From a virus (lineage: Duplodnaviria > Heunggongvirae > Uroviricota > Caudoviricetes), in the IMG/VR virus record IMGVR_UViG_2534681998_000004: a stretch of DNA of 4,386 nt; one strand, 5' to 3'. Of this stretch, positions 2 to 4,304 are shown one piece after another. The first letter of the stretch is position 1, and each line of letters starts with the position of its first letter. Position numbers and translations under genes: made by a program. Under the pieces are notes generated by a model. It made no database searches. It was not told the DNA's origin and saw nothing but the letters and a program-made list of their open reading frames with translations.

Positions 2-478
2 GCACAGATTGGCGCGATGACTGAACAGCAAATCCGGCAGGTCTGCCGTCAGTGCATGGACCGCTGCCGGGCGGGTGAAACGTGGCCTCCGGACCTGGCT
101 GAGTTTGTGGCGTTGATTTCGGAGAGCGGGGCAAATCCATTTGGCCTGACGGTGGATGCCGTGATGGAGGAGTACCGTCGCTGGAGGAATGAATCCTGGC
201 GGTACGACGGGAGTGATAAATACCCGTGGCCACAGCCGGTGCTGTACCACATTTGCCTCGAGATGCGTGACAGAGGGATTGAGCGGCAGATGACGGAAGG
301 TGAGTTAAAACGACTTGCAGAACGGCAACTGACGAAATGGGCAAAGCAAGTTGGTAACGGGATGAGTATTCCCCCGATCCGGAGACAACTCGCATCGCCG
401 AAGTGCCCGCAAGGGCCAACGCCAATTGAATTACTGAAACAGGAATACGAGCGCCGGAAGGCGGCTGGTTTTGTTTGA
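2..478 (+). CDS. Replication protein P-like protein (lambda P C-terminal-domain homolog); probably 5'-partial, reading frame is open to the window edge (alternative: complete 153-aa protein from ATG 17)
   Basis: Frame is open from position 2 with no upstream stop in the window; stop TGA at 476-478. From memory of lambda P, the product shares motifs with its C-terminal half (PPDLAEFVAL vs PSPGQFVAW; YPW; LT-x-GEL-x-R-x-AE vs LTDAELRRKAADEL; IPP vs IPEP). Not confirmed by search. Confidence 0.55.
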   Translation, partial: AQIGAMTEQQIRQVCRQCMDRCRAGETWPPDLAEFVALISESGANPFGLTVDAVMEEYRRWRNESWRYDGSDKYPWPQPVLYHICLEMRDRGIERQMTEGELKRLAERQLTKWAKQVGNGMSIPPIRRQLASPKCPQGPTPIELLKQEYERRKAAGFV

Positions 479-512
479 ATCTGAGAAACGATTTTGTCGG
501 AGGAAATTTTAA

Positions 513-1228
513 TGGAAACCGTATCTGACGCACTGAAAGCACTGAAAAGAGCCTCTTCACATGTGGTGGCAGCTCGCCTTGGAATTAGTCGTGAAGAGGC
601 TGTCAACGAACTGTGGAAACTGAAACGCCGTGGAGAAGCGGATAACAAGGGGGCGATATGGTGGCTGACTCAGGCTGGTGAAAGTGAACCGGTGTCACCG
701 GTACCGAAAGTGACGGCGCAAATGCTGACAGAGGCGATTGAACAACATGGCCCACAAACGGCGGATGAACTGGCATTGATGTTCGGAATTACCTCCCGCC
801 GGGCGAATTCATCGCTGGCAATGGCAATCAGCAAAGGGTGTCTGATTCGCGTGAATCAGGATGGTAAATTTCGTTACTGCATACCGGGCGTTGATTTACC
901 GGCAGAGCCGAAAGCAGCATCCGTAGCTGAAACGGAGGGTAAAGCCCTTCCTCAGCCAGCTGGTGTTGCGTTACCAGTCCAGGAAACGGCTGCACAGGAA
1001 GAAATTAAAACAGAAGCGGTGGAGGACATTGTGAAGTTGCAGCAATCGTTCACTGAAGCGAAAGCAGATGACCTGATTCTACCATCGCTGCATGTGGCTA
1101 ACCGCGAGCTGCGCCGGGCGAAAAGTAATGTTCAGAAGTGGGAGCGAGTCTGTGCTGCGCTACGGGAACTGAACAAACACAGGGATATTCTCCGGGATAT
1201 TACCGCCACCAGAGAGCAGCAGCGGTGA
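513..1228 (+). CDS. Hypothetical prophage protein, about 238 aa, with two N-terminal winged-helix-like segments, a Pro/Ala/Glu-rich linker and a charged C-terminal helix
   Basis: ATG at 513 preceded by GGAGGA (499-504) at 8-nt spacing; the ORF track's start at 494 is a TTG with no better RBS. Long ORF with ordinary amino-acid composition; stop TGA 1226-1228. Fold assignment is inference from sequence pattern only. Confidence 0.6.
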
Positions 1229-1542
1229 GTGGCTGGAAGAAGTGGCGCTGGGCTGAAATCCTGATACTCCGGCAGTGTGCGGGAACGATGAGAGTCGAAA
1301 GCATCGGTTATCTGATTGGCCGTAGTGAGTCAGCCGTCAGGACGAAAGCGCGGGAACTGGGTATCAGCATGATGTTACGGGGTGATTATCACCAGTCAGC
1401 CAAATGTTCACAGCGTGATATTGAGCTGGCGTGGCAACTGCATCAGCGTGGTGTACCCCGACGGGAAATTGCCGAAAAGTTTGGGATGAAGTTGGGCGCA
1501 GTGGATAACTACGTTTATTTCGACAGGAGGGTTCAGGAGTGA
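1225..1542 (+). CDS. Hypothetical small DNA-binding protein with two HTH-like segments ([36 protein letters not shown] and [20 protein letters not shown])
   Basis: GTG at 1225 overlaps the upstream stop as GTGA (translational-coupling arrangement). An alternative start is ATG 1288, but that would cut off the first HTH-like segment. The track's start at 1138 would overlap the upstream gene by 91 nt. Stop TGA 1540-1542. Confidence 0.5.
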
Positions 1543-1841
1543 GGGTGAGGGTTTATATCGCCGGTCCGATGACGGGATATGAAAATTTTAACCGCGAGGC
1601 ATTTCACAAAACGGAAGAGGTGCTGAAACGGGAAGGGCATACCGTTTTAAACCCGGCAGTACTTCCGGACGGGCTGACTCAGCCACACTACATGGATATT
1701 TGCATGGCAATGCTCCGTTGCGTGGATGCGGTTTACATGCTGAAAGGCTGGCAGCAGTCGGCAGGTGCAGGGGCTGAGCTGGCACTGGAGGAGAAACCGG
1801 GCCATGCGGTGATTTTTCAGGAGGTGGGCAGTGAATATTGA
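1539..1841 (+). CDS. DUF4406-like / nucleoside 2-deoxyribosyltransferase-like small protein (100 aa)
   Basis: GTG start at 1539 overlapping the upstream stop (GTGA), with AGGAGG at 1526-1531 at 7-nt spacing. The N-terminal VYIAGPMTG...N...AF motif followed by V-NPA is, from memory, characteristic of the DUF4406 / deoxyribosyltransferase-like fold. Confidence 0.6.
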   Translation: MRVRVYIAGPMTGYENFNREAFHKTEEVLKREGHTVLNPAVLPDGLTQPHYMDICMAMLRCVDAVYMLKGWQQSAGAGAELALEEKPGHAVIFQEVGSEY

Positions 1842-2148
1842 CCCGGCGATAACGATTGATATGGCCCTGAACGCCGGCCTGGCACTTCTTGGTTATTTCT
1901 ACATTATGTTCTGCAGCGGACGATGGCTGTCACTGTTGTTCATGAAAAAATGGAATAAACGCCGTAAGCAGGAGCAACGCCAGAAGGCAATGGATGCATT
2001 TTTCGAAGCCTTCGGAATTGACGGCATGGAACCAGGGGATCCAGCTCGCGCAATCAGCAGAGGGGGTGTAGTAATCCTTGTATATCGGAGTGAAGAGAAA
2101 AATGACGATCACAAAACAACGTGTAGAAGAAATCATATCCCGCATTGA
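1831..2148 (+). CDS. Hypothetical small membrane protein (one predicted N-terminal TM helix MALNAGLALLGYFYIMFCSGRWLSLLF, then a basic and charged tail)
   Basis: GTG start at 1831 with AGGAGG at 1819-1824 at 6-nt spacing; overlaps the upstream gene's 3' end by 11 nt. The C-terminal extent is uncertain because the next gene may start at 2102. Confidence 0.45.
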   Translation: MNIDPAITIDMALNAGLALLGYFYIMFCSGRWLSLLFMKKWNKRRKQEQRQKAMDAFFEAFGIDGMEPGDPARAISRGGVVILVYRSEEKNDDHKTTCRRNHIPH

Positions 2149-2419
2149 AATGTATGGACATGGTGCAGGGTATATCGCAGACGAGGTTAATGATCTGGCT
2201 ATACTGGCGCTGAATTTATCAAATATCGCGAACCTGAAGCGATACGAGCTTGATATGGGAGGTTGCGACTCGTGCGGTCAGGATTGTGGCGCTGATATGA
2301 CTGAAGATCCTGATGGTGATTATGTCCTGTTTGATGACGTGGTTAAGTTGTTTGAATTTGATACAACCACTCAAAAGTTAGAAATCCCGGCAAAGGAGGC
2401 AGCCAGTGGGCAAGATTGA
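2102..2419 (+). CDS. Hypothetical acidic protein (about 105 aa) with a Cys cluster CDSCGQDCG
   Basis: ATG at 2102 with a purine-rich stretch upstream (GGAG 2087-2090, GAAGAG 2093-2098). The track's start at 2078 is a TTG. Stop TGA 2417-2419. Product unknown. Confidence 0.45.
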   Translation: MTITKQRVEEIISRIEMYGHGAGYIADEVNDLAILALNLSNIANLKRYELDMGGCDSCGQDCGADMTEDPDGDYVLFDDVVKLFEFDTTTQKLEIPAKEAASGQD

Positions 2420-2843
2420 CTATCAGGCACTGCGTGAGGCAGCACAAAACTATCAATCGACGCTGGCGTGGTATCAGGCTACCCCGGACAGCCCAAATGC
2501 TGAACGGGATTGTGATGCGGCTCTTGCTGCGTTTAAGCGTCACATCCGTCATCGGGAAGCGGATATTATCGCTGATTTGCTGGATGGACTGGAAGAAGCA
2601 AAATCACAACTCAACGAGCAGCGTGAGTATTACGAAGGCGTTATCTCTGATGGGAGCAAGCGTATTGCTGAACTGGAAGCGCGGGAAGTTCAATTACCGA
2701 CTCGCTACGACCTTCGATATGGACACCCGATAAATGCAGATGAGCGACATGTCATGATACCTAAAGAAAATGGCAGTTGGCTTTACCTGATTGACCTAGA
2801 ACACGCATTACGCGTCGCTGGCATTCGCATCAAAGGAGAGTGA
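2406..2843 (+). CDS. Ead/Ea22-like prophage protein (145 aa), tentative
   Basis: GTG at 2406 with AAGGAGG at 2392-2398 at 7-nt spacing; overlaps the upstream gene by 14 nt. The N-terminal IDYQALREAA motif resembles, from memory, the N-termini of Ea22-like proteins of E. coli prophages. Stop TGA 2841-2843. Confidence 0.5.
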   Translation: MGKIDYQALREAAQNYQSTLAWYQATPDSPNAERDCDAALAAFKRHIRHREADIIADLLDGLEEAKSQLNEQREYYEGVISDGSKRIAELEAREVQLPTRYDLRYGHPINADERHVMIPKENGSWLYLIDLEHALRVAGIRIKGE

Positions 2844-2844
2844 G

Positions 2845-3036
2845 ATGAACGGACAAATATCAATTGTTCGACCAGGAGCATGTGACGATCGCGAAATACG
2901 AATGATTATTCGTCTGGCGATGGGGAAAACAATAACTGCTCTCATTACTCCAGAAAATCTCGCATTAGCATTAACAGGAAAGTCAGACATGCCAGTAGAG
3001 CTAAAGCTGCGAAATGTTGAGATTAAGGTGAAATAG
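2845..3036 (+). CDS. Hypothetical protein (63 aa)
   Basis: ATG at 2845 starts 1 nt after the upstream stop, with AGGAG at 2833-2837 at 7-nt spacing. Stop TAG 3034-3036. No recognisable family. Confidence 0.5.
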   Translation: MNGQISIVRPGACDDREIRMIIRLAMGKTITALITPENLALALTGKSDMPVELKLRNVEIKVK

Positions 3037-3038
3037 CT

Positions 3039-3596
3039 ATGACCACTATTACCAAAGATCGACTGCTGACAATCCAGCATTGGCGCGAAACATACGGACC
3101 GGGTAGCAACGTTGTGCTTCCAGCAGAAGAAGCGGAAGAGCTGGCACGGATTGCGCTGGCATCACTGGCAGCAGTATCGGATGAACGAGCAGCCTATGAA
3201 TTATTTATGGAGAAGCGTTTCGGAGAATCTGTAGATCGCCGCAGAGCAAAAAATGGCGATAGAGAATACATGGCATGGGATATGGCGCTTGGCTGGATTA
3301 TCTGGTGTCACCGCGCCGCCATGCTTCAGGCTGGAAACTTTCGGGAAAATAAGGGTTCGTCAACCAATAATTTTCGGATAATCTCGGAAACGTCAACCAA
3401 CTCTCCGGCAATCCCTGATGAGGTGTTGTCCGCAATCCTGAAGGTCGCCAGGCTTCGTGCAGATTTCGATGCTTCTGAAGTGGACAGGCGAGGTATCGGT
3501 AGTTGTCTGGATGAGGCCGAGCAAGAACTTATCGTTACCATTAACGAATACGCCAGTCAGATCGCAGTAGAAGCGACACAGGGGGAGAACCAATGA
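3039..3596 (+). CDS. Hypothetical prophage protein (185 aa)
   Basis: ATG at 3039 starts 2 nt after the upstream stop, with AAGGTGA at 3025-3031 at 7-nt spacing. Long ORF with balanced composition; stop TGA 3594-3596. Confidence 0.6.
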   Translation: MTTITKDRLLTIQHWRETYGPGSNVVLPAEEAEELARIALASLAAVSDERAAYELFMEKRFGESVDRRRAKNGDREYMAWDMALGWIIWCHRAAMLQAGNFRENKGSSTNNFRIISETSTNSPAIPDEVLSAILKVARLRADFDASEVDRRGIGSCLDEAEQELIVTINEYASQIAVEATQGENQ

Positions 3597-3881: not shown

Positions 3882-3896
3882 TGCGGGTGCTTGAGG
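3882..3896 (+). promoter_or_regulatory. hok mRNA 5'-end element complementary to the 3' end (fold-back inhibition, 5' partner)
   Basis: TGCGGGTGCTTGAGG (3882-3896) pairs with CCTCAACGCACCCGCA (4259-4274) over 15 bp with one bulged nucleotide; complementarity checked by hand. Confidence 0.5.
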
Positions 3897-3930
3897 CTGT
3901 CTGCCTCGGGCATGCCACCGTAAGGCAGAC

Positions 3931-4005
3931 AGAGAAAAGCCCCAGTTAACATTACGCGTCCTGCAAGACGCTTAACATTAATCTGAGGCCCAATCTATGC
4001 TTCAC
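3931..4005 (-). ncRNA. sok: Candidate Sok-like antisense RNA (antitoxin of a type I TA system); ends approximate
   Basis: Minus-strand candidate promoter: -35 TTGCCT (+4040..4035), 17-nt spacer, -10 TAACCT (+4017..4012), predicting a start near +4004. The transcript would be antisense to the mok start codon (3997-3999) and its SD (3985-3988), as in plasmid R1 hok/sok. No canonical terminator found; a U-rich run (complement of +3931-3939) is a possible 3' end. Confidence 0.3.
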
Positions 4006-4209
4006 AAACGTAGGTTAGCCTCTTACGCGCCGAAAGGCAAGGAGAAGCAGGTTATGAAGCAGCAAAAGGCGATGTTAATCGCCCTGATCGTCATCTGTTT
4101 AACCGTCATAGTGACGGCACTGGTAACGAGGAAAGACCTCTGCGAGGTACGAATCCGAACCGGCCAGACGGAGGTCGCTGTCTTCACAGCTTACGAACCT
4201 GAGGAGTAA
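3997..4209 (+). CDS. mok: Mok-like in-frame upstream reading frame (70 aa) that contains hok; analogous to the MokC arrangement as I recall it
   Basis: ATG 3997 with GAGG at 3985-3988 at 8-nt spacing; same frame as hok and the same stop. Whether it is translated as a separate product is inferred from the hok-family paradigm. Confidence 0.5.
   Translation: MLHKRRLASYAPKGKEKQVMKQQKAMLIALIVICLTVIVTALVTRKDLCEVRIRTGQTEVAVFTAYEPEE
4054..4209 (+). CDS. hok: Hok/Gef-family type I toxin (51 aa, small membrane peptide)
   Basis: ATG 4054 with AAGGAG at 4039-4044 at 9-nt spacing; stop TAA 4207-4209. The product MKQQKAMLIALIVICLTVIVTALVTRKDLCEVRIRTGQTEVAVFTAYEPEE has the Hok signature (TM helix, then TRK-x-LCE-x-R and EVAAF/EVAVF-x-AYE). 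From memory it is very close to E. coli HokD (RelF) and HokC (Gef). Confidence 0.85.
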   Translation: MKQQKAMLIALIVICLTVIVTALVTRKDLCEVRIRTGQTEVAVFTAYEPEE

Positions 4210-4258
4210 GAGACCAGGCGGGGGAGAAATCCCTCGCCACCGCTGATGTGTCAGGCAT

Positions 4259-4274
4259 CCTCAACGCACCCGCA
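4259..4274 (+). promoter_or_regulatory. hok mRNA 3' element complementary to the 5' end (fold-back inhibition, 3' partner)
   Basis: CCTCAACGCACCCGCA is complementary to 3882-3896 and sits immediately upstream of the terminator hairpin, as expected for the 3' partner of hok mRNAs. Confidence 0.5.
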
Positions 4275-4277
4275 CTT

Positions 4278-4304
4278 AACCCGCTTCGGCGGGTTTTGTT
4301 TTTT
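4278..4304 (+). terminator. Rho-independent terminator of the hok-like transcript
   Basis: Stem AACCCGC (4278-4284), loop TTCG, stem GCGGGTT (4289-4295), followed by TTGTTTTTT (4296-4304). Confidence 0.8.

Follow-up and report, generated by a model that had tools for sequence, protein, structure and literature searches.

Genes A and B, which adjoin one another in the window (the whole 4,386-nucleotide stretch of phage DNA analysed here, IMG/VR record IMGVR_UViG_2534681998_000004), appear on balance to be two independent, separately mobile accessory genes of the delayed-early class in a Rac-like O157:H7 prophage, each encoding a putative nucleic-acid binder. The prophage was traced to Escherichia coli: a Rac-like lambdoid prophage of O157:H7 matches the window at 99.9% identity. 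In the O157:H7 strain TR01, the matching prophage adjoins potC/potD-cobB and carries, in order, genes for RacR, a YdaS-like protein, YdaT, a DnaT-like protein, P, a DUF1627 protein, a hypothetical protein (gene B), a DUF4406 protein and, further on, HokD. The RefSeq annotation of the 99.9%-identical prophage gives the same coordinates for both genes.

Gene A encodes a full-length YdaW-family protein

Gene A occupies positions 512..1228 of the plus strand, stop included, and encodes 238 residues. The ATG lies at 512 and the TGA stop at 1226-1228; the start at 513 given in a preliminary description was off by one base. A Shine-Dalgarno-like GGAGG, read from the sequence, is found at 499..503 of the same strand, 8 nt 5' of the ATG. 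The product matches PF07789 with 271.5 bits (cut-off 28.1, E 2.3e-81), its residues 76-230 spanning all 155 profile positions, and phrog_630 with 1.1e-114, residues 1-237 covering positions 1-252 of 253. It is 100% identical to the RefSeq protein WP_000451012.1, a 'DUF1627 domain-containing protein', and aligns end to end with 33 family members, down to about 20% identity. Its score above the cut-off, its complete architecture and its position after a loader gene are those of the DUF1627/YdaW family, and by sequence gene A is a full-length YdaW/DUF1627 (PHROG 630) member that is already catalogued. A dN/dS ratio of about 0.2 indicates purifying selection, the winged-helix (wH) domains being most constrained (0.13-0.17) and the linker less so (0.41). 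Together with the 271.5-bit DUF1627 match, this ratio shows that gene A is more than a chance open reading frame.

The family is a narrow one, amounting to just 143 of the 50%-identity clusters found among 1.84 billion proteins. Of 5426 complete E. coli genomes, 3230 (about 60%) contain DNA resembling gene A, at 7214 places in all and at up to nine in a single genome. Literature searches on DUF1627, PF07789 and ydaW turned up no functional study beyond a listing in an RcaT screen and a survey that describes transcription factors. The YdaW protein of the K-12 Rac prophage (b1361) belongs to the same family, with 57% identity to A over both winged helices, and its gene likewise directly follows the helicase-loader gene in an immunity and replication region of the RacR/YdaS/YdaT type. 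The K-12 copy is a 186-residue truncation that lacks the end of the linker and the C-terminal helix, whereas A is full length, and the Rac loader is the DnaC-type YdaV, whereas that of the window is P-type.

Genes and DNA signals surrounding A and B

Upstream of gene A, the plus-strand gene at 17..478 encodes a 153-residue protein matching PF06992 (Phage_lambda_P, 6.8e-16) and phrog_109 ('P-like helicase loader', 5.2e-55), called 'replication protein P' in RefSeq; a P-like gene had indeed been placed just upstream of A and B in the preliminary description. Downstream of gene B, a DUF4406 (nucleoside 2-deoxyribosyltransferase-like) gene occupies 1539..1841 on the same strand (PF14359, 2e-33; phrog_355, 4.2e-43). 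In phage D6 and in an Enterobacter prophage, too, a DUF4406 gene adjoins a B homologue or lies in its vicinity. Neither A nor B nor any of the six proteins encoded downstream matched a PADLOC model at E ≤ 0.1. A review of regulators encoded by EHEC islands does not mention CP-933M, OI-36 or Sp4.

The GTG start of B overlaps the stop of A as GTGA, the stop of B likewise overlaps the GTG of the next gene, and GTGA or overlapping junctions join every gene from 512 to 3596. Promoter and terminator signals in the 480-1550 interval did not exceed shuffled controls, and no operators, iterons, promoters or repeats rose above the shuffled expectation across the window. The sole local palindrome, the 13-nt GGTGATTATCACC at 1381-1393, merely consists of the codons of a conserved G-D-Y-H motif of B, about one such palindrome being expected per window by chance. 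Both genes are presumably transcribed together with the replication genes, in the delayed-early class, and the overlapping GTGA junctions may couple their translation.

Domain organisation of the YdaW protein

On the evidence of AlphaFold2 (AF2), Foldseek and profile-profile comparison, the YdaW protein is predicted to consist of two winged helices, a disordered linker and a long C-terminal helix; the two winged helices and the long helix had been proposed, correctly, from the sequence of the 238-residue protein. The AF2 model of the whole protein is poor (pTM 0.33), and Foldseek matches to the PDB are weak (best E 1.5e-3).

The first winged helix (wH1, residues 1-58, 512..685, plus strand as for all segments) is modelled as three helices over residues 1-55 with a pLDDT of 56-73; the wing is not modelled. 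Profile-profile comparison by hhalign shows it to be homologous to the second: 54 columns align in register, with 87% probability and an E of 3.8e-6. Its L34 and W50 do not vary in the family alignment. The second (wH2, residues 68-126, 713..889) is a canonical winged helix over residues 69-123, with helices 69-79, 84-91 and 95-107 followed by strands 112-116 and 119-123, at a pLDDT of 83-89 and with a dN/dS of 0.13. Foldseek superimposes it, in short local matches, on winged helices of the MarR, ArsR, TFE, Z-alpha and AspA types with r.m.s.ds of 0.9-2.5 Å over 56-65 columns, and PDB profiles match it for ADAR1 Z-alpha/beta (3.4e-5) and AspA (3e-3). The fold is thus the one found in MarR/ArsR/TrmB, Z-alpha, AspA and FeoC proteins, at a local r.m.s.d. 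of about 1-2.5 Å over these 56-65 columns.

The linker (residues 127-181, 890..1054) is acidic, rich in proline, alanine and glutamate, and predicted to be disordered, with a pLDDT below 50 over residues 129-187; its length varies among relatives. An I-P-x-F motif precedes the C-terminal helix in most relatives. This helix (residues 182-238, 1055..1225; modelled over 182-237) is basic and amphipathic, with nine consecutive hydrophobic a/d positions from I189 to L217, an invariant R201 and the consensus EIRRTKxxLxxLExLR. Searched alone, it finds no relative in the PDB, and among PHROGs nothing beyond YdaW-family profiles, one marginal match and phrog_1888, which is uncharacterised. It is probably a coiled-coil or oligomerisation module.

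The same alternation of charge is kept throughout 34 family members, down to about 20% identity, with mean net charges of -2.1 for wH1, +3.4 for wH2, -5.4 for the linker and +5.6 for the C-terminal helix. That wH1 is net acidic across the family argues against DNA binding by both winged helices. Winged helices in many cases make protein contacts instead of binding DNA, and contacting a protein is a likelier task for wH1 than reading DNA, while the net basic wH2 is likely the nucleic-acid-binding module.

Several divergent family members are recognised by Pfam, above cut-off, as Penicillinase_R, TrmB, HTH_24 or AlkZ-like, whereas A itself remains below the cut-off of every such winged-helix family. 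The tandem winged-helix proteins ScpB, AlkZ/YcaQ (HTH_42) and UFL1/DDRGK1 are structural comparators for the fold of A, but the glycosylase or kleisin-binding context of such proteins is absent around it. Assignment to the MarR regulators was rejected: MarR_2 reaches 15 bits, below its cut-off of 27, the Foldseek resemblance is confined to the winged-helix core, and no dimerisation helices flank wH2 in the AF2 model. A Z-DNA binder of the Z-alpha type, raised by the ADAR1/ZBP1 profile matches, was rejected as well, the contact residues N and Y not being conserved in the family alignment.

Candidate roles of the YdaW protein

Lambda Ren, encoded by the first gene after P, allows growth despite the Rex exclusion system. 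Gene A occupies the same slot, directly after the loader gene, and could thereby be taken for a host-takeover or anti-abortive-infection gene, whose winged helices and acidic linker would bind and neutralise a host defence effector, for instance the NDT-domain toxin RcaT, and would not regulate transcription. We consider this reading rather unlikely. The Ren family profile and wH2 can be aligned in register, at 54% probability and an E of 1.3e-4, and phrog_142 ('Ren-like exclusion protein') matches A at 1.4e-4, with no stretch passing alone; the whole of A, however, reaches only 17% probability against Ren. Lambda Ren is a single winged helix, whereas A has two, with the acidic linker and the C-terminal helix in addition. 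The C-terminal N-x-x-F-x-E-C-R-x-S-x-x-M-x-R-V-L motif of Ren and Ren-like proteins is absent from A; the E-C-R motif is shared by lambda Ren and the 143-residue Ren-like proteins (93% probability) in the form N-x-(I/V)-(F/C)-x-E-C-R-x-S-x-x-M-x-R-V-L. Membership of A in the Ren family was consequently rejected, the similarity being generic to winged helices, with neither E-C-R nor an aligned C-terminal segment. Behind A, phage 75/02 Stx carries a genuine Ren-like gene, so that A is no substitute for Ren there.

A counter-defence role is suggested by other observations. Both wH1 and the linker are acidic, and the family is narrow, mosaic and multi-copy (up to nine places per genome), as accessory arms-race genes often are. 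The gene after A at the most distant locus weakly matches Lar restriction alleviation. The absence of a PADLOC match for A says little, as PADLOC covers defence and not anti-defence. RcaT, the retron toxin, bears an NDT-like domain (PMC8632793). In a genome-wide overexpression screen, the truncated ydaW of K-12, which retains just the two winged helices (57% identity to A residues 1-139), was listed among the prophage-gene 'blockers' of RcaT (10.1101/2020.06.22.160242). The screen validated 11 blockers; in the passages covered here, ydaW appears solely in the hit lists, with no mechanism attached.

A partnership of A with the phage initiator, loader or origin, say as a cofactor in origin binding or helicase loading, is unlikely too. 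Such a replication-accessory role was raised by the constant position of A behind replication genes. Gene A lies directly 3' of a loader or replication gene in K-12 Rac, in phages 75/02 Stx, 673R7, pPE4 and PPompW, and in about 80 non-redundant IMG/VR loci, and it immediately succeeds the replication module in nearly all classifiable non-redundant loci, behind about 38 P-type and about 45 DnaC/YdaV-type loaders. At the outlier locus L168 (30% identity), it directly follows an HTH_36 initiator-like gene; at locus L149, the upstream gene is unclassified. The tandem winged-helix layout recalls ScpB and is comparable to that of iteron initiators.

Identical A alleles (100%), however, are found behind both P-type and DnaC-type loaders, which indicates that A is not co-adapted to either and argues against a loader-specific partnership; the mosaic joint sits exactly between the loader gene and A. 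Of the replication association proposed in the preliminary description, the position after the replication genes stands, but a dependence on the loader does not fit these alleles. The other role suggested there, that of prophage regulators, is conceivable. Lambda has no DUF1627-family gene in this region, P being followed by ren, of another family, and in Pluralibacter the loader gene is directly followed by B and not by A. One representative protein has a DUF1376 (YdaU-like initiator) N-terminus fused to the C-terminal half of DUF1627, but this single case is what a decaying prophage would yield on losing ydaV by deletion.

Gene B encodes a small basic protein with two helix-turn-helix units

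Gene B (1225..1542, plus strand) encodes a basic protein of 105 residues (pI 9.85), 'hypothetical' in RefSeq (WP_000017339.1), with homologues named 'DNA-binding protein'. Its dN/dS of 0.16 indicates purifying selection, and B, like A, is more than a chance open reading frame. The start at 1225 is supported by the conservation across genera of the segment from W7 to G20, which precedes the internal Met22. AF2 predicts two three-helix units, both at a pLDDT of about 85, as the two HTH-like segments recognised in the sequence had suggested. The profile HMM and structure prediction check that had been put forward thus recovered winged-helix folds in A and HTH folds in B.

The first unit (HTH1, residues 9-45, 1249..1359, plus strand as for the other segments) comprises helices 9-18, 24-31 and 35-45 at a pLDDT of about 87 and has no Pfam match. 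Residues A10, E11, R16, Q17, C18, A19, G20, L30, G32, R33, A37 and R39 are invariant. The linker between the units (residues 46-62, 1360..1410; pLDDT about 53) carries a conserved L-R-G-D-Y-H-Q-S-x-K segment in which L51, G53, H56 and S58 are invariant. The second unit (HTH2, residues 63-104, 1411..1536) comprises helices 63-74, 79-86 and 90-104 and probably falls in the sigma-70 region 4/HTH_23/resolvase class. Across 40 members of the B family, Sigma70_r4_2 matches HTH2 in 33 (E ≤ 0.01, best 5.5e-7), HTH_23 in 18 and HTH_7 in 15, and HTH_28 and HTH_38 match as well; for B of the window itself, Sigma70_r4_2 gives 20.9 bits against a cut-off of 25.7. Comparison of HTH1 with HTH2 revealed no detectable homology that would point to an internal duplication.

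The closest solved folds found by Foldseek are 2LVS, a CRISPR-repeat-binding tandem-HTH protein, and Tc3 (1u78), with Cef1/Myb, SETMAR and Mos1 also among the matches; these PDB matches are weak, with E from 4e-2 at best to 1. The layout predicted for B, two three-helix units with a linker, resembles that of Tc3/mariner and IS630 transposase N-termini, the paired domain, Myb repeats and 2LVS, but no transposase, sigma or endonuclease domain is attached to the units of B. The layout is shared by 19 small uncharacterised phage proteins (BFVD, E ≤ 1e-3). The match to phrog_323 ('transcriptional regulator, D5-like'; 7.7e-24) is partial, covering profile positions 147-248 of 319 only, so that B corresponds to the internal DNA-binding portion of longer proteins; the regulator name is an annotation-level label. 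Kinship with the LEE regulator RgdR (ECs1581), raised by the R-G-D tripeptide, was rejected at an hhalign probability of 0.3%.

The two genes are separately mobile

The adjacency of A and B appears to be a mosaic accident, and the functional pair envisaged in the preliminary description is not supported: the genes are separable in context, in genome counts and in dS. DNA resembling B is found at 1892 places in 1369 of the 5426 complete E. coli genomes, against 7214 places in 3230 genomes for A. Elsewhere, A is followed by Ren-like/LygF genes, Ead or others. Measured over one set of loci, dS amounts to 0.23-0.26 in A and to 0.7-0.8 in B, a roughly threefold difference that places a recombination joint between the two genes.

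That A and B form a cognate module, either a regulator with its co-regulator or a pair of the toxin-antitoxin kind, is very improbable. The 4-nt GTGA overlap suggests translational coupling, but such overlaps run through 512-3596 and are not specific to the pair. In E. coli prophage loci of IMG/VR, B lies immediately 3' of A in 70 of 80, all B copies with 77% identity or more that lie away from contig edges have A upstream, and in PPompW prophages a degraded B-like remnant follows an A of 64% identity; a local co-function within E. coli prophages is thus conceivable. Outside these loci, on the other hand, B homologues of 60-70% identity occur without A: after RecE-like genes near xis-int in Salmonella, in the left operon in Pantoea, after O-DnaB-DUF4406 in Enterobacter, directly after a DnaC-like loader in Pluralibacter, and after DUF4406 in P1-like phage-plasmids, namely phage D6 and about 113 of its relatives. 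The 235-residue protein upstream of the Enterobacter homologue was considered as a cryptic YdaW and rejected, having no similarity to it and matching phrog_4657 instead. Neither A nor B has a PADLOC match. The species-wide survey of context in genome contigs covered 5 loci only, the search patterns being too specific.

Proposed functions and significance

Under the preferred reading of two independent accessory genes, A would be an oligomeric nucleic-acid-binding adaptor made on prophage derepression, in which wH1 would contact a protein, wH2 would bind nucleic acid and the C-terminal helix would oligomerise. B would be an early DNA-binding factor, possibly acting as a bipartite monomer on an asymmetric site in the manner of paired, Tc3 and Myb domains. 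The sole experimental evidence on the YdaW family, the RcaT blocking list as far as that source was covered, points to protein-directed counter-defence in preference to DNA binding.

Both genes are already in RefSeq, so that their annotation is routine and no new kind of system is involved, and they are best not treated as one unit. The description of the YdaW domains becomes clearer: the winged helix is duplicated, its two copies are oppositely charged, and an acidic linker and a basic helix resembling a coiled coil follow. In E. coli the family is widespread, A-like DNA being present in about 60% of complete genomes, and it is functionally uncharacterised apart from one screen-level link, in the portion of the source covered, to the blocking of a retron toxin. 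It is a long shot that YdaW proteins are counter-defence adaptors, whose tandem winged-helix half neutralises NDT-domain abortive-infection toxins such as RcaT. If they were, the slot after the loader, held by ren in lambda and by ydaW in Rac-like phages, would be a dedicated anti-abortive-infection locus, and the neighbouring NDT-like DUF4406 gene might share in the same biology.

Genomic setting

The 4386-base window is 99.9–100% identical to a Rac-like lambdoid prophage of E. coli O157:H7, e.g. that of strain TR01, which is integrated beside potC/potD-cobB. The TR01 prophage encodes, in order, an integrase, an excisionase, the RacR repressor, a YdaS-like HTH protein, YdaT, a DnaT-like initiator, replication protein P, a DUF1627 protein (A), a 'hypothetical protein' (B), DUF4406 and DUF4752 proteins, further small proteins, an Ead/Ea22-like protein, a DUF551 protein and HokD, followed by RusA and the lysis genes. 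The window extends from P to HokD; it is the delayed-early right operon, from the replication genes to Q/lysis, and the counterpart of the lambda ren-nin region. A, B and their two immediate neighbours lie on the + strand. The upstream neighbour of A, at 17–478, encodes a P-like helicase loader (PF06992, 6.8e-16; phrog_109, 5.2e-55), as the preliminary description had suggested.

Gene A spans 512–1228, from an ATG at 512, preceded by GGAGG 8 nt upstream as read from the sequence, to a TGA at 1226–1228; the start had earlier been placed one base off, at 513. Gene B spans 1225–1542. Its GTG start overlaps the stop of A as GTGA, and its own stop overlaps likewise the GTG of the DUF4406 (NDT-like) gene at 1539–1841. 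The B start is supported by the conservation across genera of residues W7 to G20, upstream of an internal Met22. RefSeq gives the same coordinates for A and B. Across the whole run of genes at 512–3596, each stop codon overlaps or abuts the next start codon (as GTGA at 1225 and 1539, with further overlaps at 1831, 2102 and 2406 and abutting codons at 2843/2845 and 3036/3039). This run fits a single translationally coupled early transcript, and no promoter or terminator signal above shuffled controls was detected in it.

A complete hokD/sok type I toxin-antitoxin locus occupies 3885–4299. It consists of sok (3885–4059; Rfam match of 114.9 bits, cut-off 59), the Hok open reading frame (4054–4209; PF01848, 1.2e-23), an overlapping mok-like frame (3997–4209) and a strong intrinsic terminator (4278–4295). 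Just downstream of hokD, the stretch 4218–4299, with the terminator at its end, resembles the Hfq-binding sRNA isrK below the threshold (RF01394; 27.2 bits, cut-off 50, E = 0.005). It may encode a prophage sRNA, or the resemblance may be that of the terminator alone.

Structure and conservation of the YdaW protein A

A matches the DUF1627 profile at 2.3e-81, and pairwise comparison with 21–25 distinct alleles gives dN/dS values of about 0.2 (A) and 0.16 (B); A and B are therefore real genes under purifying selection. Within A, dN/dS is lowest in the winged helices (0.13–0.17) and relaxed in the linker (0.41). The family is narrow, since HMMER, run exhaustively over 1.84 billion representative proteins, recovered only 143 clusters. 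An alignment of 34 full-length members, the most distant about 20% identical, extends from one terminus to the other. Among 5426 complete E. coli genomes, 3230 contain A-like DNA, at 7214 places in all, with up to 9 per genome and 8 in TR01. These repeats within single genomes are paralogous copies in co-resident lambdoid prophages, and are potentially recombination substrates.

The AlphaFold2 model, built from a shallow alignment (mean pLDDT 63.5, pTM 0.33), comprises a three-helix N-terminal domain of lower confidence (wH1, residues 1–55), a confident H-H-H-β-β winged helix (wH2, residues 69–123, pLDDT 83–89), a disordered linker (residues 129–187) and a long C-terminal helix (residues 182–237). 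Foldseek matches in the PDB are winged-helix proteins only (best E = 1.5e-3), including MarR, ArsR, TFE-α, Z-α, FeoC and AspA as well as the tandem proteins ScpB, UFL1/DDRGK1 and AlkX/YcaQ; short local matches have rmsds of 0.9–2.5 Å over 56–65 columns. Single divergent family members exceed the Pfam cut-offs for Penicillinase_R, TrmB, HTH_24, HTH_27 and AlkZ-like domains. When wH1 and wH2 from the 34-member alignment were compared with hhalign, 54 columns aligned in register (87% probability, E = 3.8e-6), indicating an internal duplication. For the C-terminal module, neither the PDB nor PHROGs yielded a characterised relative.

Mean charge is partitioned consistently across the family: −2.1 in wH1, +3.4 in wH2, −5.4 in the linker and +5.6 in the C-terminal helix, which displays nine consecutive hydrophobic a/d positions from I189 to L217. 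Because of this partition and the a/d stripe, wH2 and the basic C-terminal helix would be the nucleic-acid-facing parts, and the C-terminal helix would oligomerise A. With its E/D-rich 'recognition' helix, wH1 is more likely a protein-contact module. The tandem winged helices and long C-terminal helix initially proposed for this 238-residue protein are borne out by structure prediction, Foldseek and hhalign.

Structure of the small protein B

The AlphaFold2 model of B (mean pLDDT 75.3) contains three-helix units at residues 9–45 and 63–104 (HTH1 and HTH2), in agreement with the two HTH-like segments first described. The protein is basic (pI 9.85). The linker L-R-G-D-Y-H-Q-S is modelled with low confidence and is the most invariant stretch of the family. 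In 33 of 40 homologues, HTH2 can be assigned to the sigma-70 region 4 / HTH_23 / resolvase class; B from the window itself falls under the sigma-70 region 4 cut-off (20.9 vs 25.7 bits). HTH1 has no Pfam match and no detectable relationship to HTH2. Among solved structures, the closest matches agree with one another although each is weak: the tandem-HTH CRISPR-repeat-binding protein 2LVS, the bipartite DNA-binding domain of Tc3, the Myb repeats of Cef1, and the HTHs of IstA and ECF sigma factors. The same layout is shared in BFVD, at E ≤ 1e-3, by 19 phage proteins of about 100 residues; most of them are uncharacterised, and a few are fused to endonucleases. PHROG 323 matches B at 7.7e-24, only the middle third of its profile being covered.

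The 13-nt palindrome GGTGATTATCACC at 1381–1393 coincides exactly with the codons of G53-D54-Y55-H56, of which G53 and H56 are invariant. It is probably a by-product of coding, since chance alone would produce roughly one such palindrome per window.

Linkage between A and B

B lies directly downstream in 70 of the 80 closest A loci in IMG/VR, and all B copies with 77% identity or more that lie away from contig edges have A upstream. Homologues of B of 60–70% identity in other genera occupy varied early-gene contexts, none of which includes A: downstream of RecE-like genes near xis-int in Salmonella, in the left operon in Pantoea, after O-DnaB-DUF4406 and two further genes in Enterobacter, and directly after a DnaC-like loader in Pluralibacter. 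B also adjoins DUF4406 in the P1-like phage D6, and is carried by about 113 plasmids classed as non-mobilizable; those listed are 90–95 kb long, like D6. The gene downstream of A varies too: it is Ren-like/LygF in phages 75/02 Stx and 673R7, Ead in pPE4 and weakly Lar-like in the most distant locus. B-like DNA is far less common than A-like DNA, with 1892 places in 1369 genomes. In loci with both genes, dS is 0.23–0.26 for A and 0.7–0.8 for B, which indicates a recombination joint between them. The GTGA overlap is not specific to the pair, as the whole run is joined in similar fashion. A and B are paired locally, not generally; the adjacency originally described holds, and a general partnership is not supported.

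DUF4406 lies beside or near B in three backbones with differing gene order, those of the window, D6 (L006, 3387–3998) and the Enterobacter prophage (L174, 2846–3136), and is absent near B in the Salmonella, Pantoea and Pluralibacter loci; a loose linkage is possible. Homologues of B in two differing backbones have an uncharacterised phrog_1372 gene, of 110 aa, beside them, upstream in Pantoea (L172, 3672–4004) and downstream in Pluralibacter (L176, 4312–4644).

Replication or counter-defence

In nearly every locus that could be classified, the replication module is directly followed by A. Loaders of P type and of DnaC type (about 38 vs 45 non-redundant loci) both precede A alleles that are 100% identical. 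A is therefore not co-adapted to the loader, and the boundary between loader and A is exactly where a mosaic joint falls. The replication association once suggested survives for A by position only. In the 313-aa representative protein P0267, an N-terminal DUF1376 domain, like that of the initiator YdaU, is followed by the C-terminal half of DUF1627. This arrangement is the expected outcome of a deletion in a decaying Rac-like prophage, or else P0267 is a genuine fusion. The most divergent YdaW locus (30% identity; L168, 4599–6714, 'Bacterium BS0013') continues with a weak Lar-like restriction-alleviation frame and a colicin immunity/pore-forming colicin pair, inside the prophage early region.

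The main rival to an accessory adaptor, and the most interesting alternative, is a counter-defence role for A, which we consider unlikely. A sits after the loader in the slot occupied after P in lambda by ren, the Rex-endurance gene, but lacks the C-terminal motif that defines Ren. A genome-wide overexpression screen lists K-12 ydaW with the prophage genes termed 'blockers' of the retron-Sen2 toxin RcaT, although within the accessible text of that preprint it figures in lists of hits only (bioRxiv 10.1101/2020.06.22.160242). The K-12 protein is a 186-aa truncation with both winged helices only, 57% identical to A over residues 1–139 of A. RcaT has an NDT-like domain (PMC8632793), as has the DUF4406 product encoded two genes downstream of A, but A is found in many contexts without DUF4406. 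Together, the screen, the NDT-like domains and the ren slot make a testable hypothesis, short of evidence. YdaW also appears in a survey of uncharacterised E. coli transcription factors, where a MarR-type domain was noted (PMC9308461); no functional study was found in the literature on DUF1627, PF07789 or ydaW.

We are highly confident that A is a full-length YdaW/DUF1627 tandem winged-helix protein and B an unrelated small bipartite-HTH protein. More tentatively, A would act as an oligomeric nucleic-acid-binding adaptor and B as a monomeric bipartite DNA reader, both made only after derepression, outside the replication machinery and not as a cognate pair. There is no novelty at the level of kind: A and B are already catalogued, evolve under purifying selection, are separately mobile, and belong to the delayed-early accessory genes of a type of prophage that is very common in E. 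coli.
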